Origin: an uncultured bacterium
Lineage (GTDB): Bacteria > Patescibacteriota > Saccharimonadia > Saccharimonadales > 2-12-FULL-41-12
Assembly: GCA_963834265.1 (NCBI GenBank)
Contig: CAWIAU010000001.1
Span: 7,572 to 71,571, forward strand
DNA length: 64,000 bases
Reading direction: 5' to 3'
Shown: positions 5,263 to 56,900 of the stretch, piece after piece
How positions within the stretch are numbered: the stretch's first letter is position 1
Layout of the letters: each line of letters opens with the position of its first letter
The notes under the pieces: generated by a model
Databases searched by the model: none
What the model was told of the DNA's origin: nothing
What the model saw: only the letters and a program-made list of their open reading frames with translations
Program-made: the position numbers and the translations under genes

Positions 5263-6465
5263 ATGTCTTATTCATATCGTTCCAGTAAACCATCATCAAT
5301 GGCCAGCCGTAACTCACGGGGCCGTAGCGGACAAAGAAGTAATAATCGTGCGCATATGGGCCAGTATATCGACCCGAGCCGATTCGTAAAAGTGGCTACA
5401 ATATCTGAGGCTGAGGCATATACGCCTATGCACACATTTGTCGACTTTGACCTGCACTCTATATTGCAAACAAATCTCAGCGCCAAAGGGTATTTCATTC
5501 CTTCGCCTATTCAGGATCAGGCCATACCTGCAGCGCTAGCCGGCAAAGACGTTATCGGTATAGCGAGCACCGGCACCGGCAAAACGGCAGCATTTGCTCT
5601 GCCAATTCTCCAACGGCTTATTTCTGAAAAAGGCGGCGCAGCACTGATCGTAGCTCCTACCCGTGAGCTTGCACAGCAAATCGAAGAAGAATGCCGTGCA
5701 CTTGCCAAAGGCAGCGGGCTATCCGGAGCAATCCTGATCGGCGGCACGAGCATGGGCAACCAGCTGCGTGATCTGCGTGCGCAACCCCGTGTTGTTATCG
5801 GTACTCCCGGCCGCATCAAGGATCATCTGCAGCGCGGAACGCTAAAGCTGAATAATTTCAATATGGTAGTTCTGGACGAAGTAGATCGCATGCTGGACAT
5901 GGGATTTATAAATGATGTCACAGAAATTCTGAGCCGTCTCTCAGACAACCGCCAGTCATTCTTTTTCTCCGCAACTATGGACCCCAAGGTTCGTACGCTG
6001 ATAAATACCTTTACGCAGGATCCCTTCACCATATTACTCAAAGCGAGTGCAACTAATGAGAATATACACCAGGATGTAGTGCGCTACCAGGGCAATATAG
6101 ATAAGATCAGCAAACTGCAGGATATTTTACTCAAATCAGAAGTCGCCAAAGTCATTGTATTTGATGAGACCCAGCGCAGTGTCGAACGCCTCAGCAACGA
6201 GTTAATCAGCCGCGGATTCCCGGCAGATGCAATACACGGTGGCAAATCACAGGGTCAGCGTCAGCGCGCTCTAAGCAGATTCAAGAAAAATGAAGTCAGC
6301 ATATTAGTTGCTACCGACGTAGCAGCCCGCGGTATTGACGTCGTTGATATCACACATGTTATCAACTTCTCACTTCCCAAAGCTTACGACGACTATATCC
6401 ACCGTATAGGACGTTCCGGACGAGCCGGCCAGGTTGGCTACGCCCTGACATTTATCGCCAACTAA
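5263..6465 (+). CDS. DEAD-box ATP-dependent RNA helicase
   Basis: Q motif (PSPIQDQAIP), motif I ASTGTGKTAAF, Ia PTRELA, II DEVD, III SAT, VI HRIGRSGRAG. Confidence 0.95.
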   Translation: MSYSYRSSKPSSMASRNSRGRSGQRSNNRAHMGQYIDPSRFVKVATISEAEAYTPMHTFVDFDLHSILQTNLSAKGYFIPSPIQDQAIPAALAGKDVIGIASTGTGKTAAFALPILQRLISEKGGAALIVAPTRELAQQIEEECRALAKGSGLSGAILIGGTSMGNQLRDLRAQPRVVIGTPGRIKDHLQRGTLKLNNFNMVVLDEVDRMLDMGFINDVTEILSRLSDNRQSFFFSATMDPKVRTLINTFTQDPFTILLKASATNENIHQDVVRYQGNIDKISKLQDILLKSEVAKVIVFDETQRSVERLSNELISRGFPADAIHGGKSQGQRQRALSRFKKNEVSILVATDVAARGIDVVDITHVINFSLPKAYDDYIHRIGRSGRAGQVGYALTFIAN

Positions 6466-6504
6466 ATAACAACCCTCAGCCTTTTGTAAGATGTTGGCTA
6501 TACT

Positions 6505-8430
6505 CTAAATTTCCTGACATATCGGGGTGCCATTAGCATCAGTGCCACCCTCAATCCTATATAGTGCTATAAAGGTTCGTTTGGTTGCACCTGTAACAAC
6601 GCCCCGGGTACCGGCCTGATCACATTTCATATTGGTCATGATGAAAAGCTGTGTTGTGTCAGGGGGCGCTGCCTGGGTGCCCCCCGGATTTACTGCGTAT
6701 TTTACGTTAGCTGTCTTATAAATATCAGTTTTCGCATTTGCCATAACCTGAGCATTGAAAACGGCACTAGTGGCAGGGACATTACCATTATTATTCGCAA
6801 CATACTCATTCATGGCTGCGGCAACCCGGCTTACGTCATTCTTGCGCTGTGTATTGCGGGAATTGGTTTGTAAGCCTGATGCCCCGGACTCACCGCTGCC
6901 ACTATTATTTTCAATGCCGCTTAGATATGTTGGGTCGAAACCAAAGCGGGTCAGAATGTCTTTTACAGGAATAGCGCCGGCCGGTTTATCGGCTTTAACT
7001 TCACCGTCATATGGTTTGGCAGCCAGGCTGCCTTCAATCCGGAAGTCGCCGAAGAAAGCGTCGTCCTCTGCCGAAGCAGTTAATCCGGCTTTCGAAGTAA
7101 ATGACCTGACATCAACGTCAAGCGTAAATTTAATGTCGATACCACCATAGTCATCATGATATTTGCTAAATAGTGCTAATTTATCACCGCCGGTATAGAT
7201 TTGTCCAATATCTGTATAGGCAGTTTTTTCTGTAATGTTCGTATAGTAGCGAATTTTGTGAATAACCTTATACTTAGCATCTATCCACATCTCGAATGTT
7301 TCATCTTCCAGCTCTTTGACCGAGCTATCGCAGCTCCCGATCGACGTTTTTTTGGCATCTTCGATGTCTTTATCGTCCAGATTGGCGATTTTTTTGACTG
7401 CTATCTGACTCAAAACTTTATCTGACAAAGCCTTGCAGTATTCTGCAGCATGTGACCTGTTAATTCCAACTTTATAGTGAAACGAGTTGATGCCTTCGGC
7501 AGTTTTTTCTTTACCCAGATATTCGCGGTTTTCAAAAACAGCTTTATTGGCATCGGCTGTAAACAAGTACTCGTTACCTACATCCGAAACAGCGCGTATA
7601 AGGTCAGCGATTTCTCCGGCAGATATATTCTCTTTATTCTTATGTTCGACAGGCGGTAAGAATCCGGCTCCAAGCGACTCCAGAAAGTCTGCTTCAACGG
7701 AAATCCATTTGCCTTCATAATCTGAAAGTCCCGGAGCATAGTCATCTGCTCCCATGCTTTTCAGCCCCGTCAGCTGAAAATAAAGATCCGGAAATCGTTT
7801 ATCTTTTTGTAAATCTGTTAGAAATTTAAGTCCAAGTGTTCGATCTGATTCACCGGGAGAACTGATTTTAAAATCAAGATTGCCATTTGACTTAGTTGGA
7901 TCCAGCTTTACATTAAATGTACCGTTGAAACCGCCGTCTTCTATCGTAGATACTTCCAGCAAGCCGTCCAGCTCGGAACCTTTTTTGATCTGTTCCAGTT
8001 TATCTTTTTCTGTCGCCTGATCGATTAGTTTGTCCACTACTTTGCCTGAGCGGTCCAGACCTGTTCTATAGACATTCTCCGGCTTATTGGGCAGATAATA
8101 ACCAAAAACAACGCCGGCTGACAAAAATATAGTAAGAATGGTACCGACTGTAAGCGCTATGATGAGCTTTTTCTTACTCTTTTTTTGTGGCGGAGGAGAT
8201 TCACCCTCCGGAACACTGTAAAAAGCAGTCGGCACGTCACCCGCTACATGAGGTGAAACACCAGGCTGAGCGGTTGGCCGGGCGGGGACAGGAGCGGTAT
8301 TATCGGAGTAAATGGGTGGAGGGACAGGATTATCAGGAGCGAAGGTCTGGTCAGGTGGTGCAGATGAGACATTAACCGGGTCCGGATTATTCTCATTTTG
8401 TGTTGGATTAAATTCATGTTTTGGGTCCAT
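6505..8430 (-). CDS. large surface protein: Pro-rich cytoplasmic tail, single TM, extracellular domain
   Basis: 641 aa. The N-terminal 85 aa are Pro-rich, followed by KKSKKK and a TM helix. The C-terminal about 110 aa (RNTQRKNDVSRVAAAMNEYVANNNG...C...C) resemble the globular part of type IV pilins. Confidence 0.7.
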   Translation of the reverse strand: MDPKHEFNPTQNENNPDPVNVSSAPPDQTFAPDNPVPPPIYSDNTAPVPARPTAQPGVSPHVAGDVPTAFYSVPEGESPPPQKKSKKKLIIALTVGTILTIFLSAGVVFGYYLPNKPENVYRTGLDRSGKVVDKLIDQATEKDKLEQIKKGSELDGLLEVSTIEDGGFNGTFNVKLDPTKSNGNLDFKISSPGESDRTLGLKFLTDLQKDKRFPDLYFQLTGLKSMGADDYAPGLSDYEGKWISVEADFLESLGAGFLPPVEHKNKENISAGEIADLIRAVSDVGNEYLFTADANKAVFENREYLGKEKTAEGINSFHYKVGINRSHAAEYCKALSDKVLSQIAVKKIANLDDKDIEDAKKTSIGSCDSSVKELEDETFEMWIDAKYKVIHKIRYYTNITEKTAYTDIGQIYTGGDKLALFSKYHDDYGGIDIKFTLDVDVRSFTSKAGLTASAEDDAFFGDFRIEGSLAAKPYDGEVKADKPAGAIPVKDILTRFGFDPTYLSGIENNSGSGESGASGLQTNSRNTQRKNDVSRVAAAMNEYVANNNGNVPATSAVFNAQVMANAKTDIYKTANVKYAVNPGGTQAAPPDTTQLFIMTNMKCDQAGTRGVVTGATKRTFIALYRIEGGTDANGTPICQEI

Positions 8431-13301: not shown

Positions 13302-15020
13302 TTACTTTGGGGAAAAAGTATGGAATTTGGTTTTGAACCTTGAGGCCATGCTAAAAACTTCGTGTCGCCATTCGTAAAATGCATAGCCAAGCGCGGCAAT
13401 AACAGCTAGTGTCACAAGGAGCAACCTCGGATTATTCCCTACTGAGCCTGACGGAAGATCCCTGACCTGTGCAATCCCCGCCACACTACCGCCACCCGCA
13501 CTTTTCCGACAACGATTTGTTTCAGGGTTACGTTCCTGACCCTCATCGCAAGGAGTCAGAGAAGAAGCTGTTTGGATAATTGCACGGCAACGATTTGTTT
13601 CAGGGTTACGTTCCTGATCGGCCTTACACGGCACAAGTTCTGAATCAGACGCTCCGATTGAGCGACATCTGTTTGTTTCAGGGTTACGTTCCTGACCGAT
13701 TTTGCAGGCTGTCAGATTCAGCGCAGCTAGCTGTATTAACCGGCAACGATTGGTATCATGATTACGTTCCTGATCCTGACGGCAGGGTGCGAAGCTTACG
13801 ATATTGTTGCTGATGTCCTCTTCGTCGGGAGTATTAATCAGCATAGGAAGATTAGCATTCGCGGGAGTAGGCTGATTGGTATACTGCCATACCCCGTCAA
13901 TGAGCGCCCATGCATTGTTTTCTATTGGCTGCTCATAGCTCGCTGCCAAACTGACAGCTTCACCATTCGGTGCTACGAGCCGTACGCTGGCCGAACTATT
14001 AGGCAGCACCAAACCTGTCTGAGTATCAGAAAATGCCTGATATGCTCCTGACCCTATTATCTGATCGGGCAATGGGTATGATTTGGAGTAGTCAGGACCT
14101 GATTGTAGTATGTAGCCTTTCAAACTTATTGGCCGGTTGTTAGGATTGTATATTTCGATAAATTCGTTCCCCGCATCATAGCTGGTGGCATTTGGCAACA
14201 ATTCAGTGATATACAATGTGGCATTTTCGAGTGGGATAACATTGCAGTTTTCACCATCAGAACTCTCGTAACCGGCAGGGATGCTGGTCTGCAGATCATC
14301 GATATTAAAACAGAGATCAGCCTGACAATTGCCCGCTGCATCTTTCAGATACCCGGCCGGCAATTGTGTTTGTAGTCCATCAATATTTATACAGATATCT
14401 GTCTGTACTATTACTTCGTAGACACTACTGGAGACCAGTACTGGCACGGCAACCTGCCCGAAGTCATCCAGGTTATCATTAGTGTCTTTAAGCGTCGTCT
14501 CGCCAATGCTGACGCGCTGTAAAATGCCGGGGCTTACCGGATTGGCCGCAGCTGTACCTTCTGCAGTACCGCCTCCCCATCCTAATCTGTCAATTTCCAC
14601 ACCGCCGGCATCGAGCAAGCGAATATACCGGTCTTTGCCGGCAATCGAACCTGACGCAAAAGTAATATCGAAGACAGACGCCGGGTAATCAACTTTGAAT
14701 GCACTGCTCGCTGCAACCAGGTAGCCATGAGCCGGTAGCCAGAGTTTAGTATGAGCATCAGGAGCGATCAAACAGCCCAGATTTGCAGAATCTTCTGTCG
14801 TGGCGCCATATTTTAGACACCATCCGGTCGTATCAACCGCTGCCGGGCTGTTGTTGTAGACAGAGATGTATTCTTTATTTGTAAATCCTGTTGCCCCGAC
14901 CTGTAACTGGTAAATCACAGGATTGCCAGCTGCTTGAGCCACTTGAGAAACTAACATCAATAACCCGAGTACTGCGAATACTCCGCTCACCCCCAGCAAG
15001 CTTTTAATCATGCCGTTCAC
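13302..15020 (-). CDS. surface-anchored protein with two lamin-tail (LTD) domains and four Cys-bracketed repeats
   Basis: Signal peptide; LTD-like segments (YISVYNNSPAAVDTTGWCLKY; EFIEIYNPNNRPISLKGYIL); 4x C-x3-QERN(P/H)(E/D)TNRCR; C-terminal TM helix. Confidence 0.8.
   Translation of the reverse strand: MNGMIKSLLGVSGVFAVLGLLMLVSQVAQAAGNPVIYQLQVGATGFTNKEYISVYNNSPAAVDTTGWCLKYGATTEDSANLGCLIAPDAHTKLWLPAHGYLVAASSAFKVDYPASVFDITFASGSIAGKDRYIRLLDAGGVEIDRLGWGGGTAEGTAAANPVSPGILQRVSIGETTLKDTNDNLDDFGQVAVPVLVSSSVYEVIVQTDICINIDGLQTQLPAGYLKDAAGNCQADLCFNIDDLQTSIPAGYESSDGENCNVIPLENATLYITELLPNATSYDAGNEFIEIYNPNNRPISLKGYILQSGPDYSKSYPLPDQIIGSGAYQAFSDTQTGLVLPNSSASVRLVAPNGEAVSLAASYEQPIENNAWALIDGVWQYTNQPTPANANLPMLINTPDEEDISNNIVSFAPCRQDQERNHDTNRCRLIQLAALNLTACKIGQERNPETNRCRSIGASDSELVPCKADQERNPETNRCRAIIQTASSLTPCDEGQERNPETNRCRKSAGGGSVAGIAQVRDLPSGSVGNNPRLLLVTLAVIAALGYAFYEWRHEVFSMASRFKTKFHTFSPK
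13505..13790 (-). repeat. four tandem 75-78-bp coding repeats (core ACGATTTGTTTCAGGGTTACGTTCCTGA)
   Basis: Cores lie at 13512-13539, 13590-13617, about 13665-13695 and 13746-13773. They encode the QERNPETNRC modules of the LTD protein. Confidence 0.9.
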
Positions 15021-35027: not shown

Positions 35028-35273
35028 ATGTTCTTCCGACCAAGAACCAAGTCGATACTTTTGTCAGCAGCAACAAAAGTATCCAAAAACGCCGCATCGG
35101 TTGCCGAAACAAGACTGTCCCTCAATACCAGATCAGTTCGTGCCGGCAAAGACACCCGCTGGTCGGCCCCGCTTGATTATTTTTAATGAGAAGCAGGACT
35201 GGTTTGCCGTCAATAACCCGAACTGACCTGATTGAGTGTCAATCCGTTTCGGCAAATGCTGGACTGGATCCAT
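35028..35273. repeat. copy A of a ~250-nt structured repeat (second copy at 56647-56900)
   Basis: Long identical blocks are shared with copy B (ATGTTCTTCCGAC, AAGAACCAAGTCGATACTTTTGTC, CCAAAAACGCCGCA, GTGCCGGCAAAGAC, TTTCGGCAAATGCTG). Hairpins at 35030-35047 and 35054-83 (11-bp perfect stem). Confidence 0.85.
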
Positions 35274-43124: not shown

Positions 43125-44018
43125 ATGGATGAATCGCTACTGGAATCTGCTCTGGCAAGTTACGATACTTTTTTGCATAATATCGGTAGCTGGTTCTCAA
43201 GTCACGGCTGGACTGTTCTGGGCATCATGCTGGGCGCCTGGCTTGTAAGGCGCTTTGGTGCACAGCTGATTATCCGCGCTTTTCACCGGACTATCCGGGA
43301 AGACCTCTATCCAACGCGGGCAGACCGCGAGAAGCGTATCAGAACATTAGATGCTCTCATACACGCAGTGACACGCTTCGGAGTTTATATTGTGGCCGGC
43401 ATTATGATTGTCAGCGAGCTGGGCGTCAATACCGCGCCGTTGCTGGCCAGTGCAGGAATCCTCGGTATCGCGCTTGGCTTTGGAGCTCAGAGCCTGATCA
43501 GAGACTTTGTTAGCGGTATATTTATAATTACTGAGAATCAGTACCGTGTAGGAGACATCATCGAGCTGGATAACACTGCGGGCGTTGTCGAAGCCATAAC
43601 TATCCGTACGACCGTTATCCGCGATCTCAGCGGCAACCAGCACCATATACCCAATGGTAGTATCATTCGCACCACCAATATGACAATGGGCTTTGGTGGA
43701 ATAGATGAGAATATTGTCGTCGGCAACGAAACAGATATGCCGGAGTTAATCGCACTTATAAATAAAATCGGCGCAGAAATGGCTGAAGATCCTGTTTTCG
43801 CCAAAAAAATCAAAGAACCGCCACATTTTTTACGCATCATCAGCCTGAACAGGGGTGGCATAGAAGTAAAGATTATCGGTACTACAGGAGCCAGTGATTC
43901 ATGGGATGTAAAGGCGGAGTTATACAGCCGCTTATTGCCCGCTTTGCGCAAAGCAAAGATCAGCACCCCGACCACAGACTTCAATACAGTATTTACCCGG
44001 GCCGGTACTAAACTTTAG
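43125..44018 (+). CDS. mechanosensitive ion channel (MscS family)
   Basis: Three TM helices, then GIALGFGAQSLIRDFVSGIFIITENQYRVGDII. Confidence 0.85.
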   Translation: MDESLLESALASYDTFLHNIGSWFSSHGWTVLGIMLGAWLVRRFGAQLIIRAFHRTIREDLYPTRADREKRIRTLDALIHAVTRFGVYIVAGIMIVSELGVNTAPLLASAGILGIALGFGAQSLIRDFVSGIFIITENQYRVGDIIELDNTAGVVEAITIRTTVIRDLSGNQHHIPNGSIIRTTNMTMGFGGIDENIVVGNETDMPELIALINKIGAEMAEDPVFAKKIKEPPHFLRIISLNRGGIEVKIIGTTGASDSWDVKAELYSRLLPALRKAKISTPTTDFNTVFTRAGTKL

Positions 44019-44064
44019 CGTGAACACAAGCCATGAAAATGATTCTTAGTTAAAATAAATTTTA

Positions 44065-44400
44065 TTATTTGAGCGCCAGATAAACAGCAACCGCGATCAT
44101 GAATCCGGCTATGACAATGGCCGAGAAAATTGGCACGATTGGTATGGTCGAGGCAGGTTTGGGAGGGCGTGGAGCAGGAGCGGGTATGACCGCTAATTTT
44201 TCTTCATGATCAGATTCTTCTGGCTGTTCTGTTGCTGGTGATGTCTCAGGCGCCGGTGCGGGCGTTGTCTCCGGAGTATGCATTGGCTCAGGAGCAACCG
44301 AACTTTCGGATGGCTTTGCGCTTTCGGCTACAGTTTTATCTTCAGGGGGAGGTGTTGGTGTTGGTGGAGGAACTTTAACATCATCCATTTTTATCTCCAT
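44065..44400 (-). CDS. tail-anchored Pro/Thr/Glu-rich protein
   Basis: 111 aa of low complexity ending in one TM helix. An extended -10 TGCTAAAAT lies on the minus strand at 44439-44431. Confidence 0.5.
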   Translation of the reverse strand: MEIKMDDVKVPPPTPTPPPEDKTVAESAKPSESSVAPEPMHTPETTPAPAPETSPATEQPEESDHEEKLAVIPAPAPRPPKPASTIPIVPIFSAIVIAGFMIAVAVYLALK

Positions 44401-44475
44401 TTGTTACTTGGCCGGAAACTATTTATGCTTATTTTAGCACATTATCTTTACTAGTCATTTACGCAATCAGACTTA

Positions 44476-44644
44476 AGAGCTAATTAACATCTATCTGTCG
44501 GCTAAAAACTTAAGGTCCGGCACTTTCAATCTGTTTTTCGTTTTCGGTTCGTAGCAAAGGCTACGACCAAAAGCCGAAAAACAGATTGAAAATCATGTCG
44601 GCTGCTAAAGTTTCGCTATCAACAGATAGATGTTAATTAGCTCT
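44476..44644. repeat. 169-bp rod-like inverted-repeat element (E1)
   Basis: 23-bp perfect outer stem (44476-98 / 44622-44), 17-bp perfect inner stem (44524-40 / 44575-91) and an apical GTAGC-AAAG-GCTAC (44551-64). The large internal loop carries TGTCGGCT on both strands of the loop. Confidence 0.85.
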
Positions 44645-44888
44645 AAGATTTCTGCTGAGCAATCCAGGTCAGAATAATACCCACGCCCAGCAGTTCTCTA
44701 ATGCCATGGAAAATGATCCATGCAGGATTATCTGTAAGTCCTACGATATAAGTGAATGCTAATGACAAATACAGTACCGCGAACAGGTAACAGATCCACG
44801 CCTGCCAGCTGATCGGAAAATAACTTTTACGCTTCTCTATAAACCACTTATCCTGATTTGTTTTTACATCTTTTTTCTTCATACGCAC
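44643..44888 (-). CDS. small two-TM membrane protein
   Basis: 81 aa; its stop codon overlaps the outer arm of E1. Confidence 0.5.
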   Translation of the reverse strand: MRMKKKDVKTNQDKWFIEKRKSYFPISWQAWICYLFAVLYLSLAFTYIVGLTDNPAWIIFHGIRELLGVGIILTWIAQQKS

Positions 44889-44941
44889 AGTGTACCATTT
44901 TCAGTTGTCCAAAGGTAAGCAATTTGGACTTAGCTTACGCT

Positions 44942-47110
44942 CTAATAGTAATACCAGCGGTCAGTACCCGCGGTGTTGGTTACATCTGTCAGTTTTTTGG
45001 GCTGGCCGCCGCTCAGGCTCATGACGTAATCCGCTGTTTCCGGTCCGCCCGCAACCCTATAAACTACATGGTCGTTATCGAGCCAGCGTAACGGGTTTTT
45101 GAGGCCACTCTGTGAATGCAATACTTTGTCTTCTTTGCCTGTATGATCATAAGCCAAAAGCGTTCCCTTGCCATCGCGATCTTCAACCCACAGACTGCGC
45201 GAATCATCAGGGCTGCCAATGTACAACCGGGAGACGAGTGCGGGAGGAGCTCCGGTGGCCTTACTGAACTTACCCCCCGGGATATCGTAGTCGTACCAAT
45301 CCTGACCGACAGACACGCTTATTCGGTCAAAGCTGGTACGGAAGAGATTCCAGGCTTCTTTGTCCGAGATAGTCTTTTTGCCGCTGCCATCAGAATCGAT
45401 TCTGAATAAGCCTATAGCTCCGTTCACTTTATATATCGCCGGGCTGTAATATATTGCGCCCCGGGCTACCATAACATCGTTGAAGTAATTGGTACTGGCC
45501 AGTTCTTTTTCCTGCTCGGTTTTCAGATCATAAGACATCAACCGATGTCGCTGAGGGCTGGCCGCACTGGCACCCTCGGCTACCACGACATAGATCAATC
45601 TATCTCCTATCCAATCAATGATCTGGATTCTTTCTGACTGTCCGATTTTGGTTATGGTCGCATTTTCTACATTGATAATGTTGAGCGTGCTCAACAAAAA
45701 GCCATCTTTATTTCGTATATTGCCACGTGTCGAGACAAAAGCTGTCATTTCTTTAGCAGGATGCGATACCAGGGTCATACTATCCGGCTGTTCGCTACCT
45801 GTTCCAAGTAGTAATTTTTGTTCATTTTTGCCGTCAACGTCAATCTTGTAGATGTCAAATGTCCCGCTCCGTTTGGACACAAAGACGGCTTTTCGCGCCG
45901 GTACCAGTTTGACCTGCTGGTTTACTTTGTTGGCAGCAGGAATTTTCAATATTTCATTACGATAATTGTCAGCTGTTATGGTCACTTCTATCTCTGCGTC
46001 ATCAGACTGCGGTACACTTAATACGACTTCACCTTTTTCATTGGAGCTGGCGCTGGCTTCACCGCTGGATGCTTCGCCTTTTGTGAGTGATTTGCCTGAC
46101 AGAAAATCACTTAGTATAAAGGTGTACTGGCTACCAACGGGTATCAGATTCATGCTGCCAAGCGGATTGCTGCCCCAGCCGATATTTAATTCTTTTGTCA
46201 TATCAGCAAATGCAACCTTTTTGATACTAAGCGTCTGCGCCCCAAGCTTAATATGATCGAGCCTCACTGTGCCTTCTTTGTCCGTTCTGCTTGTTTGTCC
46301 GGCCAGATTAACTTCAACGTTTTTGAGTGGCTGACCGGTGGTCTGATCCAGAACTACCATCGAAGTGGAAGCTCGCACACCTACAGTATTGAGCACAAAA
46401 TAACGGCTGGAAGGCAATACAGCGCACGCTACCAAACCGGCCAGTAGCAATATTACTGTAAGCCGGCGATACAGCCGGTTATGCCACCATGCCCCGAAAA
46501 ATGCCTTGAATTTAGATTGTGTTTTGGGCTGTGCAGCCAATAACGGAGGAGTCTCAGAGGTGTTACCTGCCCGTTCGTCTTCGGCAGCCAGAAGTTCATC
46601 CGCTTCCTCGGCCACAATAGCATCGACAAGTTTGCCTGTATCCGGGTCATCAAGTTTCAGTTCATCTGTAGGCTTGACGGCTGTGCTGTCTTCTTCGGTT
46701 GTATTTTCGGGTAATTCTTCGGGCTCTGTTTCAGCTACTACTTCAGGCTCTTCAATAATCTTTACTTCGTCAGGATTATCCGTTGCTTCAGACTGTTCAG
46801 GTACTTCATCTCCGGACACTTTTCTTTTATCAGGATCGGCATGGGGGGCCGTTTTATCTTCGGGAACATCTGTAGTTTCATTTTCATCGTGGAAAATTTT
46901 GATTTTTTTTAACTTTTCGGTAGGCAAAAGCGGAGCACCCATTGACTCAGAATCTTTTGGAGCCGGAGCCAGCGTATCGCTGATATCCGGTTCATCCGGA
47001 ATATCGCTACTCATCATAGCGTCGACTTTGCTCTCCAGTTCAGGATCAACGCCGCCGGAATCAAATCCTGGCTCGTGGTCTGCTTTGGGTGTGTCTTTTT
47101 TATTGGCCAT
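44942..47110 (-). CDS. membrane-anchored protein: acidic disordered tail, TM, CarboxypepD_reg-like domain, TolB/PD40-like beta-propeller
   Basis: 722 aa. The N-terminal about 210 aa are D/E/P-rich, followed by a TM helix. MVVLDQTTGQPLKNVEVNL...TDKEGTVRL, then FVSKRSGTFDIYKIDVDGKNEQKLL-type repeats. Paralogue of 47907-49676. Confidence 0.8.
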   Translation of the reverse strand: MANKKDTPKADHEPGFDSGGVDPELESKVDAMMSSDIPDEPDISDTLAPAPKDSESMGAPLLPTEKLKKIKIFHDENETTDVPEDKTAPHADPDKRKVSGDEVPEQSEATDNPDEVKIIEEPEVVAETEPEELPENTTEEDSTAVKPTDELKLDDPDTGKLVDAIVAEEADELLAAEDERAGNTSETPPLLAAQPKTQSKFKAFFGAWWHNRLYRRLTVILLLAGLVACAVLPSSRYFVLNTVGVRASTSMVVLDQTTGQPLKNVEVNLAGQTSRTDKEGTVRLDHIKLGAQTLSIKKVAFADMTKELNIGWGSNPLGSMNLIPVGSQYTFILSDFLSGKSLTKGEASSGEASASSNEKGEVVLSVPQSDDAEIEVTITADNYRNEILKIPAANKVNQQVKLVPARKAVFVSKRSGTFDIYKIDVDGKNEQKLLLGTGSEQPDSMTLVSHPAKEMTAFVSTRGNIRNKDGFLLSTLNIINVENATITKIGQSERIQIIDWIGDRLIYVVVAEGASAASPQRHRLMSYDLKTEQEKELASTNYFNDVMVARGAIYYSPAIYKVNGAIGLFRIDSDGSGKKTISDKEAWNLFRTSFDRISVSVGQDWYDYDIPGGKFSKATGAPPALVSRLYIGSPDDSRSLWVEDRDGKGTLLAYDHTGKEDKVLHSQSGLKNPLRWLDNDHVVYRVAGGPETADYVMSLSGGQPKKLTDVTNTAGTDRWYYY

Positions 47111-47168
47111 AGAACTTTTTGTTTAGATTTAGATAAGGTTAAGCATAACAGATTTCTGCTGATATGTG

Positions 47169-47335
47169 TATATAGGACTTTCGCACTTTCCCACAGCCCC
47201 GGAACTCATCTGAGCTGCTGCAAATTGCCCATCTTCTCTCAATGTAGCGACGGCTACCCCTCCGGAAGCTGAACAATTTTCGCTAAACCCGAGCTGACCT
47301 CCGGAATCCATGTCAAAGTGCGAAAGTCCTATATA
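47169..47335 (-). ncRNA. candidate structured RNA / hairpin element E2, homologous to E3 in reverse orientation
   Basis: 21-bp perfect outer stem (47169-89 / 47315-35). The minus-strand core shares CAGCTCG, AGCGAAAATTGTT, GTAGCC, GCTACATTGA and CAATTTGCAGC with 52941-53103, in the same order. Confidence 0.45.
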
Positions 47336-47404
47336 GCTTTTGCAATTAACATGTTGGCGATACCGCTCTTCGGCAATGATCTGTTACTAAATCAATTGAC
47401 CGGA

Positions 47405-47800
47405 TCAACTGATTTCCAGTCGACGAAGCCAAAACCATAGCAATGCACCTATACCCGCCAGAAATAAACATATGCCTGCCAGTAAAGTCTTTGATGTACC
47501 CCCGGCTGTATCGGGCGGAATGGCTTTATCCGGTTGTTTATCCATCTGTCCGCTGCCTGTATTGGCAGACAGTCCCGCATCATTCAGTAATTTTTGATTC
47601 GATTGATCGAGCAAACTACCTTTGCTACTATCGCCAAATATTTGCGGATCTGAGCCCTGTAAGCCTGCCGGCGCCTGCTGTAACCCGCCCCCGCCTGATT
47701 GTAGCAAACTGCCCTGCGCGGTATTGCCAACCTGCTGAGCCTGAGCAGCCGCGGGCAGCATTAAAGCCAGCAGGAATATAAATGCAGCAACGCGCTTCAT
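47405..47800 (-). CDS. secreted Gly/Gln/Ser-rich protein with C-terminal TM anchor
   Basis: The start is set at the ATG at 47800 (MKRVAAFIFLLALMLPAAAQA|QQ), which gives a canonical signal peptide. The track start at 47815 is a GTG inside a hairpin. Confidence 0.6.
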   Translation of the reverse strand: MKRVAAFIFLLALMLPAAAQAQQVGNTAQGSLLQSGGGGLQQAPAGLQGSDPQIFGDSSKGSLLDQSNQKLLNDAGLSANTGSGQMDKQPDKAIPPDTAGGTSKTLLAGICLFLAGIGALLWFWLRRLEIS

Positions 47801-47867
47801 CCCGTTAGAGTTCACTCAGATTTACCATTCGAAAAATTTACATACGTTTTTTGAACTCTAACGGGAT
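47799..47867 (-). promoter_or_regulatory. 16-bp perfect hairpin enclosing the translation start region of 47405-47800
   Basis: ATCCCGTTAGAGTTCA (47799-47814) pairs with TGAACTCTAACGGGAT (47852-47867), with a 37-nt loop. The proximal arm ends within the ATG. Confidence 0.5.
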
Positions 47868-47906
47868 TCATGTCTCTAATCATACCAGTTATGCGTAATG
47901 CGGGTG

Positions 47907-49676
47907 TTACAGACCGCCGTAGCCACCGCCGTAGCCCAGGAACCGTATTGACGGCTTATGGTAATCGGTAACTTTGAGGTACGTTGCATTCCCGCCAATC
48001 TCCCTGGGAGCTACATAGAGTTCGCTGCCCTCACTGGATATCAGGATATATTCATCGCTGTACCAGCCATACGGGTTATACTTGGTGGTTTGATCCAGTA
48101 ATTTTCCTTCCTCACCGGCTTTATTACCCAGAAACAATGCGCTCTTACCATCGCGGGGTTCGCTCCAAAGAGTATAGTTGCCACTGGGAGACAAAAGATA
48201 TGTCGGATACTCACCCGTGAACTTCTCGCTCTCATTTGCAGCGTCTTTGATAGCGTTGTCCTCATACTCCAGATAGTTTTGCTTTCCATCGGTATAGTAT
48301 GAGAAATAGACTTCATTCGGTTTGTAGAGCAGCTGCTGGACGTATATGTTGGCTGGCAGGGATTTTACGTCTTTTTTGCCGGAACCATCGTAGTTAATAG
48401 CATTGATAGTTACTGCTTTGCTATCCAATGCAATACCATAGCCACCCTGCCATTGTTTGACATAAATGATGTTCTGGTCAAGCAGACTAACTCCGGATGC
48501 AATTTCCTGAGCAACTCCGCCTTCGCCGGTTGTTTCGTCAATTGTCTGTAGTTTTCCGGTTGACGCATGGAAGACTTTCAGAGCCTGACGTTTGGGCTGA
48601 CCGACAGGCACCTGATTACGCGTAACCGTATACACAAAGTCCTGATCGTGCCATCCTGACAGAGCGAAACTGGCATCCCCTTCATCAAAGGCCGTCAATT
48701 TGTCATTTGATGTGTCGAGCAGATACAGCTTGGGCTGCGGGCTGTCGCGCCGGGACTGTAGCACCAGATATTTCCAGTCGCGGGTCGCAAGCAGAACCGT
48801 ATTGCCCTCTTCTTCCCTGCCAGTCCCCGGCAGTACAGTCTGGCGATCAGTACCGTCAAGATTGGTTTTGACGACATCTATCTTGCCGGTACGTTTAGAC
48901 AGGAAATACAATTTGCCACTCGCCGTGAGGCTAAACTTATTATCCTTATCTCCGGGGTTTTCAGCTACGATATCCACCGTAGCCGTATTGAAGCCCTGTC
49001 GTGACAATTCGGCTTTTTGATCTTTGCCGCCCGCAGGCAGAACGATAGTTGCCAGGCCTTTTTCGTCAGTCTTTGCTTCGCTGTCGCCGGCTTTTATAGC
49101 CACGGCCGTGAGACTTTTACCCGAAATTTTATCCGTTACCGTAATTTCCACTTGGCGCCCTGTTGCCTCAAGCTTCGTCTGCAAAGGTTCTTTCTTAGAT
49201 TTAACTCCAACCGTTATTGACTGACTGTACTCTTTGTAATAATTCTTTTTTATCTGAAGATTGGCTTTACCCACCTTGACTACTGATAAGTTAGCTTTGC
49301 CTTCTCCATCGGTTCTGGCTGTTTTGCTTCTGATCGTTACATCGGCACCACTAACCGGCTTATTCGTCTTACTGTCCAGTACTACTACCGGCACATCCTG
49401 ACTCAGAAATGTACCGAGTACCAGATACCGCGTAACAGGAACTGCCAGTAATATACTAATAACAGCCAGAACAGTCAGTGGAATGGTCAGCTTCTTTTTG
49501 GCAAGATATCTGACCCACAATCTCTTTAGCCGGCCGGGCTCTTTATCTGATGTATTTACGGGAATCTCCGGAGTTATTTCAGTATTTTCTGTCACTGCAC
49601 TTTGGTCCGTATTTAAGTTTTTGTTCTGCTCTGTCTCTGTTGTTTCTGAGTTTTCATCAGAAGTATCATTCTTCAT
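47907..49676 (-). CDS. membrane-anchored protein: disordered tail, TM, CarboxypepD_reg-like domain, TolB/PD40-like beta-propeller (paralogue of 44942-47110)
   Basis: 589 aa; VVVLDSKTNKPVSGADVTIRSKTARTDGEGKANL; YFLSKRTGKIDVVKTNLDGTDRQTVL; ends GYGGGYGGL. Confidence 0.8.
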   Translation of the reverse strand: MKNDTSDENSETTETEQNKNLNTDQSAVTENTEITPEIPVNTSDKEPGRLKRLWVRYLAKKKLTIPLTVLAVISILLAVPVTRYLVLGTFLSQDVPVVVLDSKTNKPVSGADVTIRSKTARTDGEGKANLSVVKVGKANLQIKKNYYKEYSQSITVGVKSKKEPLQTKLEATGRQVEITVTDKISGKSLTAVAIKAGDSEAKTDEKGLATIVLPAGGKDQKAELSRQGFNTATVDIVAENPGDKDNKFSLTASGKLYFLSKRTGKIDVVKTNLDGTDRQTVLPGTGREEEGNTVLLATRDWKYLVLQSRRDSPQPKLYLLDTSNDKLTAFDEGDASFALSGWHDQDFVYTVTRNQVPVGQPKRQALKVFHASTGKLQTIDETTGEGGVAQEIASGVSLLDQNIIYVKQWQGGYGIALDSKAVTINAINYDGSGKKDVKSLPANIYVQQLLYKPNEVYFSYYTDGKQNYLEYEDNAIKDAANESEKFTGEYPTYLLSPSGNYTLWSEPRDGKSALFLGNKAGEEGKLLDQTTKYNPYGWYSDEYILISSEGSELYVAPREIGGNATYLKVTDYHKPSIRFLGYGGGYGGL

Positions 49677-51413: not shown

Positions 51414-52724
51414 TCAGGGAGCCAGGCGGTTGATGTCTCGGGGGAAGAGTGTAGCTTCTTTGATGTTCTTCAAACCAACAGTTTTTTGCACCAGCCGGTC
51501 AATACCGTAGCCGCAGCCGCCATGCTGTGGCAGACCGAATTTCATAGCCTGCAGGAAATATTTGTAACCGGGATGTTCAATATCCATACCGGCTGCTTTC
51601 ATTTGTTCAACCAGTTTATCGTAGCGATGTTCTCGCAGCGGTACGGTTGCGATCTCCAGCCCCCTGAACAACAAATCCCCCCAAAGTACTGTCTTAGGAT
51701 CGTTCGGATTAACATGATGGTAGAATTTCATGGCTTCAATCGGGAAATTTGTCGCATATACCAGGTCGGAGCCAAGTTCCTTGCGGGCATAGTCACAAAT
51801 CCAGCGCTCCTCATCCGGTATTAAATCCTTTTCGTCGGTTGTGTCAGTCTTGGTAGCTTTGGTATACATTTCGTGAATTTCAGCAACTGTAAATTTCGGT
51901 ACTATGTCTGTGGTAACTAACTCCGGAGCTTGAAGCGACTTCAGATCAGCTGCGTGATCATTATATACCCTTTTGAGCGCATCAATGGTCATACTGCCGA
52001 CCGTATCGAGCACTTCATCGTGGTCGACGACAAATCCCATCTCGATATCCAGCATCATGACTTCGCTCATATGTCTGGTGGTGGCGCTGGGTTCAGCACG
52101 GAAAGCCGGTGCGATCTCAAATACCCGCTCGAAAGCACCGACCATCATTTGCTTGTACAACTGAGGACTCTGCGCCAACGTGGCTTCCTGGCCAAAATAA
52201 TCCAGTTTAAAGACTTCAGCACCGCCCTCTGTAGCCCCGGCCAGCAATTTCGGTGTCTGTATTTCGACAAATTCATTCTTTGTCAGATACTCACGTATAT
52301 AGCGCAACAGGCTGGCCCGGATTTTGAAAACTTTTTGCTCCTGCAGATTGCGTAGACTCAGCGCGCGGTATTCAAACAACGTATCCAGGTTTTCAGGCTT
52401 GTGATCAATGGGTTTGTCGATTTCGATCGGGGGTTCATCAGTGACCGGCACCAGAATCGTAAGTTTGGGATCATGAATTTCAGCTCCACCAGGTGCTCGC
52501 TCGTCCTCAAAGACCATACCTGCAACTTCCAGTACCGTTCCTATATGCAGGCCGCGAAGTTTCTCAACTTCGGATTTATCCTGCACCAATACCTGCACCA
52601 GACCACGTCGATCCCGAACGTTTATGAATGTCAGCCCACCCAGCAGGCGTTTCTTATGGAGCCAGCCCTGGATTTTTATTTCTTTACCGATATGTTCTTT
52701 TACGTCTGAACTCAGAATTCTCAT
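51414..52724 (-). CDS. aspS: aspartate--tRNA ligase, archaeal/type-2 form
   Basis: 436 aa with an N-terminal OB fold (IKIQGWLHKKRLLGGLTFINVRD), motif 2 FRAEPSATTRHMSEVMMLDIEM and motif 3 GGCGYGIDRLV. Confidence 0.85.
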   Translation of the reverse strand: MRILSSDVKEHIGKEIKIQGWLHKKRLLGGLTFINVRDRRGLVQVLVQDKSEVEKLRGLHIGTVLEVAGMVFEDERAPGGAEIHDPKLTILVPVTDEPPIEIDKPIDHKPENLDTLFEYRALSLRNLQEQKVFKIRASLLRYIREYLTKNEFVEIQTPKLLAGATEGGAEVFKLDYFGQEATLAQSPQLYKQMMVGAFERVFEIAPAFRAEPSATTRHMSEVMMLDIEMGFVVDHDEVLDTVGSMTIDALKRVYNDHAADLKSLQAPELVTTDIVPKFTVAEIHEMYTKATKTDTTDEKDLIPDEERWICDYARKELGSDLVYATNFPIEAMKFYHHVNPNDPKTVLWGDLLFRGLEIATVPLREHRYDKLVEQMKAAGMDIEHPGYKYFLQAMKFGLPQHGGCGYGIDRLVQKTVGLKNIKEATLFPRDINRLAP

Positions 52725-52928: not shown

Positions 52929-52940
52929 AAGTATTAAGGT

Positions 52941-53103
52941 TAACTTACCTTACGCAAATCGCTGGCTTCCACGATGAATCAGCTCGAGCGAAAATTGTTT
53001 TCTCTGAACGAGACGTAGCCATAGCTACATTGAAAGAAGAAAAACAATTTGCAGCCGAAATTATTCGTACTGGGGGCGCAGGAAGTTTGCGTAAGGTAAG
53101 TTA
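52941..53103 (+). ncRNA. candidate structured RNA / 5' leader element E3
   Basis: 18-bp perfect outer stem (52941-58 / 53086-103), an inner stem AAATTGTTTT.../...AAAACAATTT and an apical GTAGC-CATA-GCTAC (53015-28). It ends 11 nt before the protease ATG. Confidence 0.5.
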
Positions 53104-53114
53104 CTAAAATAAAA

Positions 53115-54890
53115 ATGAATAAACTACAAAAAATTATTTCCCTTATGTGCATGCTGGCACTTATCGCCAGTCCTTTCTCTGTGATTGCACCGTCTCAACC
53201 TCACAGCTTCAAAGCACATGAATCCGGTGATAATAACCCCCCGCGACAAAACTCATCTAAGCCTGCAGCTATTGCCGATAACAAATCTACTCCTAAGCAC
53301 TCTGATCCGTCGCCTGCAACCACCAGTACCGGACAGCCATCAAACTCTCAAGCCAACCTTTCAGACGGGGCAGTCGTAGAAAAAGACCGTATCCTGACCC
53401 GCGACGGCCGGATTTTTCCGATTCGTCAGTATAAACCTACGCTAAGCCCCAACGACACTTACGCAAATCAGTGGTGGGCAGCTACGAATGGCATGAACGC
53501 TGTATGGGATATGTCTTTTGGTGCCCGCCAGACCAAAGTAGCAATTATCGATACCGGCTTCGCGCTGAATCATCAGGAATTTGCCAATCGCTGGGCTATA
53601 AACTCCGGCGAAAGTGGCAGCACATCCAATCAGGGGGCCAGCAAACTTAACTGCACAGACCAGGCATTGGCACTCAACAAATCCTGCAACAATATAGATG
53701 ATAACTTCGACGGTATAGTCGATAACGAATTCGGCGCTGTATCGCGCCAGAATCCATCATTTCTGAATTGCACAGACCAGGCCAGAAGCTTAGACAGGTC
53801 ATGCAACCGTCTCGATGATGATAAAAATGGCCTGGTTGACGACTACCGTGGCTGGGACTTTGCCAGCTTCGATAACAGTTCGCAGGCCGGACAAACCAAT
53901 CCGGACGGCAGCGGCACTACTCATGGCACTATGGTAGCCGGAGTCCTGGGCGCTACAGGCAATAACGGCATTGGTCTGGCCGGAGTCAACTGGTACAGCA
54001 CTATCCTGCCTATCCAGGCTCTTAATGACGATAGCTATGGTGACAGCTATACTGTCGGCGAATCGATTTATTACGCAGCCGATCAGGGAGCTGATGTTAT
54101 CAGTATCAGTCTGGGAACCTCTGCCGATGATCCTTATCTGCGCCTGGCAATTCGCTATGCCATGGACAAAGGCGCCATCGTGGTAGCTGCCAGCGGCAAT
54201 GATGGCTGCAACTGCATATCCTATCCGGCCAACTATCCCGAAGTCATTGCCGTCGGTGCCATCGACAGCAGTAATAATCCTGCCGGTTTCAGCAACTACG
54301 GCTCCCGACTCGATGTACTAGCCCCCGGTGCGGGGATAACTACCAGCACCTGGACCAAAACTAATCAGGGCAGTGCATACGCAGCCAATGCGGCCGGTAC
54401 ATCATTCGCCACACCATTTGTCAGTGGATTACTCGGTCTTGCGCGCAGTTATCAGCCTGATGCGACGTGGGAAGAAATTGTTGGCGCAATGCTGGAGAAC
54501 AGCGATCGTCGTTCTCTTACCGCCAGCACACCACGCAACGACCAGCTGGGCTATGGAGTAACCCGCGCCAGCACGATGCTTGCGCGTCTCAAGACACCGG
54601 CTCAACCCGTGCAACGATATCAGCTGGGTGGCGCACCTGTCTTCGGTTCTGCGCGTACATATCAATGTGAAAACACATTGCCTGCCAGCATGCTCTACGA
54701 ACTCACTATTCAGGGCCAGCTACGTTACACAGCCAGTCCCTTCGAAAATTATAATGCAACGCTGCAGGGCTGGACTTCACGCGAAACTTTCTATACCTGC
54801 ATTGGCCTGCCAACCGACCAGCCCGGCACATTACGTATGATCAATCTGCCCGCCGAGATCAAAAACAATCCTCTGAATACGAAGTTCTAA
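53115..54890 (+). CDS. secreted subtilisin-like (S8) serine protease
   Basis: Signal peptide. Catalytic triad contexts VAIIDTGF (Asp), HGTMVAGV (His) and GTSFATPFVSG (Ser). A duplicated Cys-containing insert lies between Asp and His. Confidence 0.9.
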   Translation: MNKLQKIISLMCMLALIASPFSVIAPSQPHSFKAHESGDNNPPRQNSSKPAAIADNKSTPKHSDPSPATTSTGQPSNSQANLSDGAVVEKDRILTRDGRIFPIRQYKPTLSPNDTYANQWWAATNGMNAVWDMSFGARQTKVAIIDTGFALNHQEFANRWAINSGESGSTSNQGASKLNCTDQALALNKSCNNIDDNFDGIVDNEFGAVSRQNPSFLNCTDQARSLDRSCNRLDDDKNGLVDDYRGWDFASFDNSSQAGQTNPDGSGTTHGTMVAGVLGATGNNGIGLAGVNWYSTILPIQALNDDSYGDSYTVGESIYYAADQGADVISISLGTSADDPYLRLAIRYAMDKGAIVVAASGNDGCNCISYPANYPEVIAVGAIDSSNNPAGFSNYGSRLDVLAPGAGITTSTWTKTNQGSAYAANAAGTSFATPFVSGLLGLARSYQPDATWEEIVGAMLENSDRRSLTASTPRNDQLGYGVTRASTMLARLKTPAQPVQRYQLGGAPVFGSARTYQCENTLPASMLYELTIQGQLRYTASPFENYNATLQGWTSRETFYTCIGLPTDQPGTLRMINLPAEIKNNPLNTKF

Positions 54891-56646: not shown

Positions 56647-56900
56647 ATGTTCTTCCGACGAAGAACCAAGTCGATACTTTTGTCTTCAGCAACAAAAGTA
56701 CCCAAAAACGCCGCAGACAATTACCGGAACACGACTGTCACCCATACCAGCTCAGTCCGTGCCGGCAAAGACTCCCTTTGGTCGGTCCTGCTTAATAATT
56801 CTCAAAAAGATGCAGGACTTATTTGCCGGCAATCACCCCCACTAACCTGATGACCGCCAATCGGTTTCGGCAAATGCTGAATAAAATCCAAAGACTAAAT
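56647..56900. repeat. copy B of the ~250-nt structured repeat (first copy at 35028-35273)
   Basis: Collinear with copy A, with the same two 5' hairpins and long-range complementary segments (TGCCGGCAAA / TTTGCCGGCA). It starts 26 nt after the dsbA-like stop and ends 10 nt before the stop of the pilin-like gene. Confidence 0.85.

Follow-up and report, generated by a model that had tools for sequence, protein, structure and literature searches.

The window considered here is a stretch of 64 000 nucleotides of a bacterial chromosome (contig CAWIAU010000001.1, from an uncultured member of the Saccharimonadales) with about 45% G+C. The subject of this work is E2, a palindromic element lying after the stop codon of a gene for a 136-aa protein (47405–47815) and before TGTTATGCT, the promoter motif of a gene for a 722-aa protein. 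With two related copies, E1 and E3, it lies within 9 kb, and profile searches of the window detected these three only. The genes near the elements code for a non-discriminating AspRS (51414–52724), a subtilase (53115–54890) and two secreted CarboxypepD_reg/beta-propeller proteins. One relative of the 722-aa protein bears the label Candidatus Saccharimonadales, which, taken with the homologues of the element, points to a Saccharibacteria (TM7) genome. The coordinates are reported in table 1. E2 is very probably a non-coding, almost fully palindromic MITE (short for miniature inverted-repeat transposable element), that is, a non-autonomous DNA transposon remnant, of 159 bp.

In an original prediction, made from the letters of the sequence, E2 had been described as a perfect 21-bp stem enclosing a core of 125 nt. 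The arms stand as described: they run from 47169 to 47189 and from 47315 to 47335, are 21 nt long and 100% complementary, and enclose 125 nt. The outer 4 bp (TATA) do not belong to the element, since comparison with the ends and flanks of other copies resolves the stem into a 17-bp terminal inverted repeat and a duplicated TATA target. Elsewhere in the window the 21-mer goes unmatched, even when three mismatches are allowed (0 expected). Against the family profile (nhmmer), the minus strand of E2 reaches 124.8 bits and its plus strand 49.2 bits.

E2 is, as had been proposed, a homologue of E3 in reverse orientation. The minus-strand core of E2 aligns with the plus-strand core of E3 at a local score of 34, against 8.0 ± 1.2 (maximum 13) for dinucleotide shuffles; compared on the same strand, the two score 10, which is chance level. 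The aligned blocks are GCGAAAATTGTT, GTAGCC-NNN-GCTACATTGA, AGAAGA and CAATTTGCAGC. The central module of E2 is common to E3 and to a 161-bp repeat of Rhodothermales described below. The pattern GTAGC-N4-GCTAC has three matches in the window, one each in E1, E2 and E3, where 0.05 would be expected, and the columns of the apical hairpin are invariant in the alignment of all subfamilies (A4).

The position given earlier for E2, after a gene stop and before an extended −10 with no U-run behind the hairpin, was confirmed. The sequence following the stem is UAUACACAUAUC, and no terminator-like or promoter-like site and no U-run were detected in 46900–47900. An intrinsic terminator, which needs a G+C-rich hairpin followed by a U-run, was rejected on these grounds. 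The 60-aa open reading frame (ORF) listed over the element is spurious, in agreement with the earlier suspicion: no frame is consistently free of stops across the family members, in which the stops fall in varying frames, and a small protein or an element adapted to in-frame insertion was likewise discarded. A search of the window and 15 loci with Rfam 15, at gathering and E-value thresholds, brought only tRNA to threshold. A scan of 44000–48000 at E up to 10 gave no match overlapping E2, and seven weak matches, mostly microRNA-like, on the central hairpin of E1.

Table 1. Features of E1, E2 and E3 in the window, with the lengths and ends of the classes of their family.
Feature	Coordinates	Strand	Description
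E2 proper	47173..47331	− (sense = minus strand)	159 bp end to end of terminal repeats; boundaries from 20+ homologues
E2 target-site duplication, copy 1	47169..47172		TATA; identical TATA at other flank
E2 left terminal inverted repeat	47173..47189	+	TAGGACTTTCGCACTTT; 17/17 bp perfect, partner 47315–47331
E2 central module	47217..47283	−	GCGAAAATTGTT (47283–47272), apex, CAATTTGCAGC (47227–47217)
E2 apical hairpin	47244..47257	−	GTAGCC-GTC-GCTAC; most conserved part in all subfamilies
E2 right terminal inverted repeat	47315..47331	+	AAAGTGCGAAAGTCCTA
E2 target-site duplication, copy 2	47332..47335		TATA
Extended −10 promoter of 722-aa gene	47142..47150	−	TGTTATGCT; belongs to the host, outside E2
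E3	52944..53100	+	157-bp sister copy; flanks TTAA (52940–52943) and TTAC (53101–53104)
E1	44477..44643	−	167 bp, second subfamily; ends GAGCTAATTAAC…; duplication TAA 44474–44476 / 44644–46 (plus strand)
Element length, E2/E3 type			153–160 bp
Element length, E1 type			166–169 bp
Element length, Rhodothermales type			161 bp
Terminal ends of the family classes			TAGGACTTTCGCAC, CTGGACTTACGC, GAGCTAATTAAC, GAACCTGTTTGGG

Relatives and mobility of the family

A scan of 185,579 species-representative genomes was conducted with the pattern GTAGCCNNNGCTACN{14,20}CARWTTGMA, which comprises the apex and the right-hand block only. It returned 88 loci (loci are cited below by L numbers). Besides scattered noise, these form two groups, one from Saccharibacteria and other members of the Candidate Phyla Radiation (CPR), the other from Rhodothermales (phylum Rhodothermota). 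In the first group, E2-type ends (TAGGACTTTCGCACTTT or compensated variants) are present in L054, L012, L046, L009, L015, L043, L079 and L100; E1-type ends (GAGCTAATTAA…ATCTATCTGT) in L088, L011, L016, L054 and L151; and ends CTGGACTTACGCAAAATCG, related to those of E3, in L010 (two copies), L040 and L152. The ends of E1 recur in L108 and L136 as well. Two copies are chimeric, with one end of each type (L040, 2799–2955; L010, 1639–1794). L010, L040 and L151 each contain three copies within 8 kb. Many copies with identical terminal repeats, which the original prediction had named as the mark of a plain MITE, are largely what was found: TAGGACTTTCGCACTTT recurs, and the metagenome-assembled genome (MAG) CAYGDJ01 alone holds at least four E2-type copies. 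A metagenome scan contributed another 16 members, all of these types. Neither E2 nor the Longimonas repeat was matched in the plasmid collection, and the viral contigs gave one chance-like match (L001), devoid of palindrome and strand asymmetry.

The Rhodothermales group consists of 44 loci with a 161-bp palindromic repeat bearing the ends GAACCTGTTTGGGTTTTGG; Longimonas halophila yielded more than 30 copies of it. At the centre of the repeat stands GCGAAAATTG-N17-GTAGCCGGGGCTAC-N16-CAATTTGCAGC. The likeness to the centre of E2 is not an artefact of the search, because neither the left block nor the spacing was part of the pattern. The Saccharibacteria-type and Rhodothermales repeats thus have in common a centre of about 75 nt, GCGAAAAYTG…GTAGCC-NNN-GCTAC…CARTTTGCAGC, which is kept while the tips of the subfamilies (TAGGAC, CTGGAC, GCACGC, GAGCTA and GAACCT) and their duplication lengths differ. 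Since the MAFFT alignment of all subfamilies (A4) is structurally inconsistent, with RNAalifold finding only the apex there, the subfamilies were analysed separately.

The flanks of the copies carry short duplications. Identical 3-bp flanks border 27 of the 31 complete copies of the Rhodothermales type (TAA 10, TTA 10, TCA 4, TGA 1, TAT 1 and TAC 1), and TAA or TTA flanks are found at E1 and several of its relatives. Non-palindromic duplications were read at E2-type copies (TACA in L009, TAAA in L079, GTAT in L040, CTAAG and AGTAA in L151), and TCTA, TAAA and TAGA at sister copies of the E3 type. Some E2/E3-type flanks, including those of E2, are TATA.

Empty sites are provided by L090 and L091, which code for orthologues of the 722-aa protein (70% and 68% identical, respectively). 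E2 is absent from both loci. In each, the small upstream gene ends just before the promoter motif, which is kept as AATCTGTTATGCTT at the same distance from the ATG. L091 does contain an E2-type copy, at an unrelated locus. L090 also lacks E3, and the window with E3 removed is colinear with its subtilase promoter and 5′ untranslated region (UTR; TTGACn-17-TATGAT…AAGGTT|…AAAAATG). The promoter ascribed to E3, from which an orientation of the elements had been deduced, is therefore the subtilase gene's own, with E3 sitting in the leader. The family is mobile, or was until recently. As the comparison shows, E2 entered a TATA site in this lineage and duplicated it; on one side of that site the 136-aa gene stops, and on the other lies the extended −10 of the 722-aa gene, which is conserved.

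The orientation of the copies relative to the genes was read from crude calls of the genes flanking 22 copies of the Saccharibacteria type and 44 of the Rhodothermales type, those with no callable neighbour being left out. The downstream gene is co-oriented with the element in 7 cases and opposite in 12 for the Saccharibacteria type (3 uncallable), and in 18 and 21 cases for the Rhodothermales type (5 uncallable); for the upstream gene the figures are 9 and 12, and 19 and 11. Orientation is thus random across copies, and the agreement in the window between the favoured strand of the elements and the strand of the flanking genes, to which the original prediction had pointed for E2, is a coincidence. 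The neighbours are unrelated genes, such as those for TsaD, Mur ligases, arginase, TyrRS, RecG and MscL. We identify E1, E2 and E3 as MITEs because the same ends occur on other copies, the duplications vary, orthologous sites are empty, orientation is random and there is no match to Rfam or to a terminator; terminal inverted repeats, copy-specific duplications, a non-coding length of 153–169 bp and dispersed copies with presence/absence polymorphism are all in evidence.

Several copies have a structure of their own. One of the E3 type (L010, 6511–6668) lies inside the 500-aa Mur ligase ORF 5641–7143, between the Mur_ligase_M and Mur_ligase_C domains, and keeps the frame (158 bp plus a 4-bp duplication make 162 bp, or 54 codons); as this is a MAG, an assembly artefact is possible. 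Another E3-type copy (L040, 7410–7625; flanks TAGA/TAGA) has an insertion of about 60 nt by the apex and a compensated apical stem, GTATCC-AAA-GATAC. In the Rhodothermales, a hairpin insertion of about 25 nt, CCAGGGGCATGACCTTCGGCCCCAG, follows CAATTTGCA in L019, L025, L036, L047, L057, L063, L068, L074 and L087, and a second one, GCGCCCTGACCGTAGGGAAGAAGTACTCCTGGGGTGC, is present in L056, L062, L073 and L074; these are either nested small insertions or variant subfamilies. L077 has a solo left end of the Rhodothermales repeat (1884–1912, TAA|GAACCTGTTTGGGTTTTGGTTTGACAGG) after a Usp gene and before mscL, which is a remnant copy without its right half and not the end of an insertion sequence. 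A 143-bp palindromic element with ends CACACTAATTAACCG… occurs in MAGs of Lachnospiraceae/Bacillota (L022, 6940–7082; L049; L089). Its centre, TTTCCATCTGCC…GTAGCCACCGCTAC…GCAGATTGAAA, resembles that of the E1 type, and the element may represent a further branch of the family in the Firmicutes. With ±110 nt of context, the L022 element folds better on the antisense strand (−83.9 versus −75.8), and its arm mismatches are 4 G·U and 0 A·C.

Folding and strand bias

As RNA, E2 has a minimum free energy (MFE) of −84.6 kcal/mol on the minus strand (z = −8.8) and −63.0 kcal/mol on the plus strand; E3 reaches −70.6 when read as the plus strand and −61.2 as the minus strand. True members of the family fold better, by 8–40 kcal/mol, on the strand that reads GCGAAAA…GTAGCC…GCAGC, whereas noise matches show no such difference. 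This sense strand is the more stable one in 16 of 16 elements, with RNA and DNA parameters alike.

The hairpin of E2 is better on the minus strand because of G·U pairs between the arms. On the structures given by RNAalifold, G·U occupies 125 cells in 34 columns and A·C 16 cells in 11 columns, a count that favours G·U by construction. The fair test is one blind to the pairing rules, in which one arm is aligned to the reverse complement of the other with a scoring that ignores them. By this test the arms of E2 hold 11 G·U mismatches and 1 A·C, and the wobble pairs claimed for the minus strand are borne out. The ratio reaches 9:0 to 11:0 in L009, L010, L012 and L050 (values of 9:0, 9:0, 10:0 and 11:0 were obtained), with a smaller excess elsewhere. 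The bias is still present in an E2-type copy of L054 (3415–3572) that is antisense to both of its neighbours; it is a property of the element and not of its context.

The hairpin itself covaries. Among 18 E2/E3-type sequences, standard pairs fill 92.1% of the cells, against 77.4% in column shuffles and 34–47% in a control in which the partners were slid by one to three columns, and changes on both sides are found in 41 of the 58 pairs (21.4 expected). In the E1 group, 33 of 72 pairs have changed on both sides. The apex varies in the same manner (GTAAC/GTTAC in L151, GTATC/GATAC in L040). Covariation alone is no proof of an RNA, because the ends of transposons co-evolve with their transposase and palindromes can be homogenized as DNA. 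The data show that a rod-like hairpin is kept by compensatory change, with G·U favoured over A·C on one strand in all subfamilies; the one-strand bias implies that some single-stranded form is under selection, or that mutation is strand-specific.

Proposed mechanism and possible role of the favoured strand

The terminal repeats and short fixed duplications suggest that the elements would be mobilized in trans by a DDE-type transposase. TNA duplications together with GA/GG tips are the signature of the IS5 group and of PIF-Harbinger ("Tourist") elements, and the sister subfamilies with 3-bp TNA duplications and GA/GG tips would fit that style. Part of the E2 repeat may also resemble, in inverted polarity, the end of IS5 (GGAAGGTGCGAA…).

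The form in which the favoured strand matters may be RNA, a reading to which the analysis gives appreciable weight, though rather less than an even chance. No terminator separates E2 from the upstream gene, and transcripts reading through would carry the sense strand, folded into a hairpin of about −80 kcal/mol. Such a long duplex with perfect ends would be a natural target for RNase III, or might stall or stabilize the upstream 3′ end, as in the Correia and ERIC elements. This would decouple the transcript of the 136-aa gene from the 722-aa gene, which keeps its own promoter.

Several observations weigh against the account as a whole, from the mobilized element to the RNA step. No autonomous element and no transposase with matching ends was found in the 1.1 Mb of fetched loci or beside the copies. 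A search of the Longimonas loci for solo ends and for inverted pairs of ends spaced by kilobases gave only the remnant next to MscL, the ORFs around the clustered copies in L010 and L040 are housekeeping genes, and tblastn of the 1.1 Mb with an IS5 transposase gave nothing credible (best E = 0.86, a CarboxypepD_reg gene in L020). TATA is palindromic, and the duplication at E2 is convincing only by analogy with other copies. The duplications of the E2/E3 type are not strictly fixed in length, being of 4–5 bp with a few readings of 3 bp. Variable ends around a conserved centre are the reverse of the usual MITE pattern. In the rule-blind test there is little G·U excess in E3 (4 versus 6 A·C) or in E1 (3 versus 3). 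For the RNA step in particular, the random orientation to genes argues against selection by the host for a co-transcribed RNA.

The hairpin might instead matter as single-stranded DNA, a strand exposed or used during mobilization or replication, with the G·T bias arising either because a folded intermediate is selected for or because the strand, when exposed, undergoes deamination (C>T, A>G). We consider this rather unlikely, and less probable than RNA. It would suit a bias that is independent of context and persists in anti-oriented copies such as the one in L054, the random orientation, the greater stability of the sense strand with DNA parameters too, and a fold that takes in the extreme ends of the element, which would lie outside any RNA started from an internal promoter. 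Yet short fixed duplications and terminal inverted repeats point to double-strand cut-and-paste by a DDE enzyme, for which no hairpin is needed, and the known single-strand transposons (IS200/IS605, REPIN/RAYT) make no duplications. Exposure in replication is excluded as a common cause, since the sense strand is the minus strand in E1 and E2 and the plus strand in E3 within one replichore of monotonic GC skew. A strand bias without any function takes up the probability that the RNA and single-stranded DNA readings leave; a historical accident in the master copies is unlikely, because the wobble positions are independent in at least five subfamilies.

It is very improbable that E2 and E3 serve as dedicated genes for structured RNAs, or as cis-regulatory elements of a terminator-like kind, transcribed on the strand of the flanking genes, as the original prediction had it. 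The very stable and covarying fold (z = −8.8), the match, in each of the three copies of the window, between the favoured strand and that of the neighbouring genes, and the start of E3 about 10 nt after TTGACA-17-TATGAT would all be explained. The duplications, the ends conserved on many copies, the empty orthologous sites and the random orientation elsewhere would not, nor would copies that neighbour unrelated housekeeping genes, with one of them placed within a Mur ligase ORF; the promoter is that of the subtilase gene, present in L090 where E3 is not, and there is no U-run, no terminator-like match and no Rfam family. A cis-regulatory RNA was rejected in its own right, the orientation being random and the neighbours unrelated, with no fixed set of regulated genes. 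Hardly credible at all is an invertible DNA switch, in which the inverted repeats would be recombinase sites and E2 and E3 two orientations of a phase-variable segment. Perfect inverted repeats do flank a segment of about 125 bp upstream of genes for secreted proteins, and E2 and E3 do have opposite genomic orientations; but their loci are distinct and each element has the orientation of the gene downstream of it, the segment as a whole is a palindrome and not a promoter cassette, duplications and empty sites show insertion and not inversion, and no recombinase gene is nearby. An integron attC site was discarded (the ends are TAGGAC…GTCCTA and not RYYYAAC…GTTRRRY, the stems are perfect, where attC sites at the 3′ ends of cassettes have extrahelical bases, and the neighbours are housekeeping genes), as were a REPIN/RAYT or IS200/IS605 element, given the target duplications and with no HUH gene seen near the copies, and a 6S-like RNA, a retron non-coding RNA or a mimic of CRISPR repeats, all of which lack their defining features here.

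Returning to the MITE reading, E2 is not quite a "plain" MITE, in that its strand bias and its cross-family centre still call for an explanation. The central module is kept, with the G·U bias on one strand, through no fewer than four classes of terminal repeats and two or three lengths of duplication, in two phyla that are unrelated, Saccharibacteria/CPR and Rhodothermota. That the hairpin module of about 75 nt is itself a functional single-stranded nucleic-acid motif is rather improbable. Such a motif could possibly be read on one strand by the mobilization machinery, combining duplications with a strand-specific folded intermediate, or it could be an RNA "passenger" spread by these MITEs. 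If true, this would offer a testable structured motif, of RNA or single-stranded DNA, required by or carried on a bacterial MITE.

Among the known systems, the Correia elements of Neisseria (CREE/NEMIS) are comparable in being intergenic MITEs of about 100–160 bp with terminal inverted repeats and short AT-rich duplications. They form a long hairpin when co-transcribed, which for E2 is a prediction only. There is no sequence similarity, and the Correia families share their ends where the E2 family shares its centre. To our knowledge, neither strand-biased G·U pairs nor conservation across phyla has been reported for Correia elements. ERIC/IRU, a 127-bp enterobacterial repeat, is similarly an imperfect palindromic mobile repeat of transcribed intergenic regions; it belongs to another phylum and has another sequence, and the signature of mobility (duplications, empty sites) is clearer in the E2 family. 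De Gregorio et al. reportedly found in 2005 that the effect of ERIC on mRNA depends on the orientation of insertion. E1 and the Rhodothermales subfamilies resemble the Tourist and IS5/PIF-Harbinger elements in their 3-bp TNA/TWA duplications and GA/GG ends, from which the E2/E3 type departs by its 4–5-bp duplications and its tips TAGGAC and CTGGAC; no IS5-like transposase was detected in the fetched loci. REPIN/RAYT and IS200/IS605 also have long hairpin-forming repeats with one active DNA strand, but without the target duplications, which are clear in the E2 family, or terminal inverted repeats, and no RAYT, TnpA or HUH gene was seen near the copies. In published accounts, the paired terminal repeats of Correia hairpins are cut by RNase III, ERIC acts on RNA via RNase E, and the consequence of an ERIC copy for the mRNA beside it reportedly varies with the direction in which the copy was inserted (PMC10969869). 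The Rickettsia palindromic elements, of about 150 bp, can sit in frame inside genes (PMC10969869), as does the copy in the Mur ligase gene of L010, which is the single in-frame case in the E2 family, where no frame is kept open family-wide.

As a kind, the MITE is ordinary; the E2 family itself seems undescribed. Unusual in it are the one-strand G·U bias, a centre more conserved than the ends, and its sharing between CPR and Rhodothermota. We found no published description of the E1/E2/E3 family in the literature and no paper linking Saccharibacteria/Patescibacteria or Salinibacter to MITEs, and a 2024 survey of MITEs does not mention these taxa (PMC11602168). In an annotation, the label that suits E1, E2 and E3 is mobile repeat, and not small RNA gene, terminator or 60-aa ORF. 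The genomes of Saccharibacteria are tiny, near 0.7 Mb, and are regarded as poor in mobile DNA. The present family has made lineage-specific insertions in promoter, UTR and intercistronic sites and in one Mur ligase gene, which show that the genome is still plastic and has a ready supply of variation in expression.

Sister copies and other repeats in the window

E3 has a perfect stem of 18 bp (52941–53103) around a core of 127 nt. Its site is the subtilase 5′ UTR, where it starts about 10 nt past the conserved promoter TTGACA-17-TATGAT and precedes the ATG. Three complementary double changes set its outer repeat, CTTACC…GGTAAG, apart from the consensus of the family, CTGGAC…GTCCAG, and the repeat recreates a TAAGGT resembling one just upstream.

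E1 has a perfect stem of 23 bp (44476–44644) around a core of 123 nt. With its duplications (44474–44646) it sits exactly at the stop codon of an 81-aa ORF (44643–44888), the TAG of which is formed by the duplication and the first base of E1; prior to the insertion, TAA would have served as the stop in this position. The 13-mer AGATTTCTGCTGA (plus strand) occurs at 44647–44659 and 47152–47164, within 20 nt of E1 on its right and of E2 on its left, and a partial inverted repeat, TAACAGAT/ATCTGTTA, brackets E2 at 47146–47162 and 47370–47386. Both may be due to chance.

The window has other repeats besides. Between the gene for a 589-aa protein (47907–49676) and the 136-aa gene, a perfect 16-bp inverted repeat, ATCCCGTTAGAGTTCA / TGAACTCTAACGGGAT, with a spacer of 37 nt (47799–47867), overlaps the listed GTG start of the latter; its sequence is unrelated to E1–E3. 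Four tandem 78-bp repeats (13507–13794), 72–100% identical over 54 nt, lie inside the ORF 13302–15020; they do not form a CRISPR array and probably correspond to a protein repeat of 26 aa. A segment of about 245 bp is duplicated 21.6 kb apart, at 35028–35272 and 56647–56890, with 78–94% identity (repeat families D2, D3 and D8).

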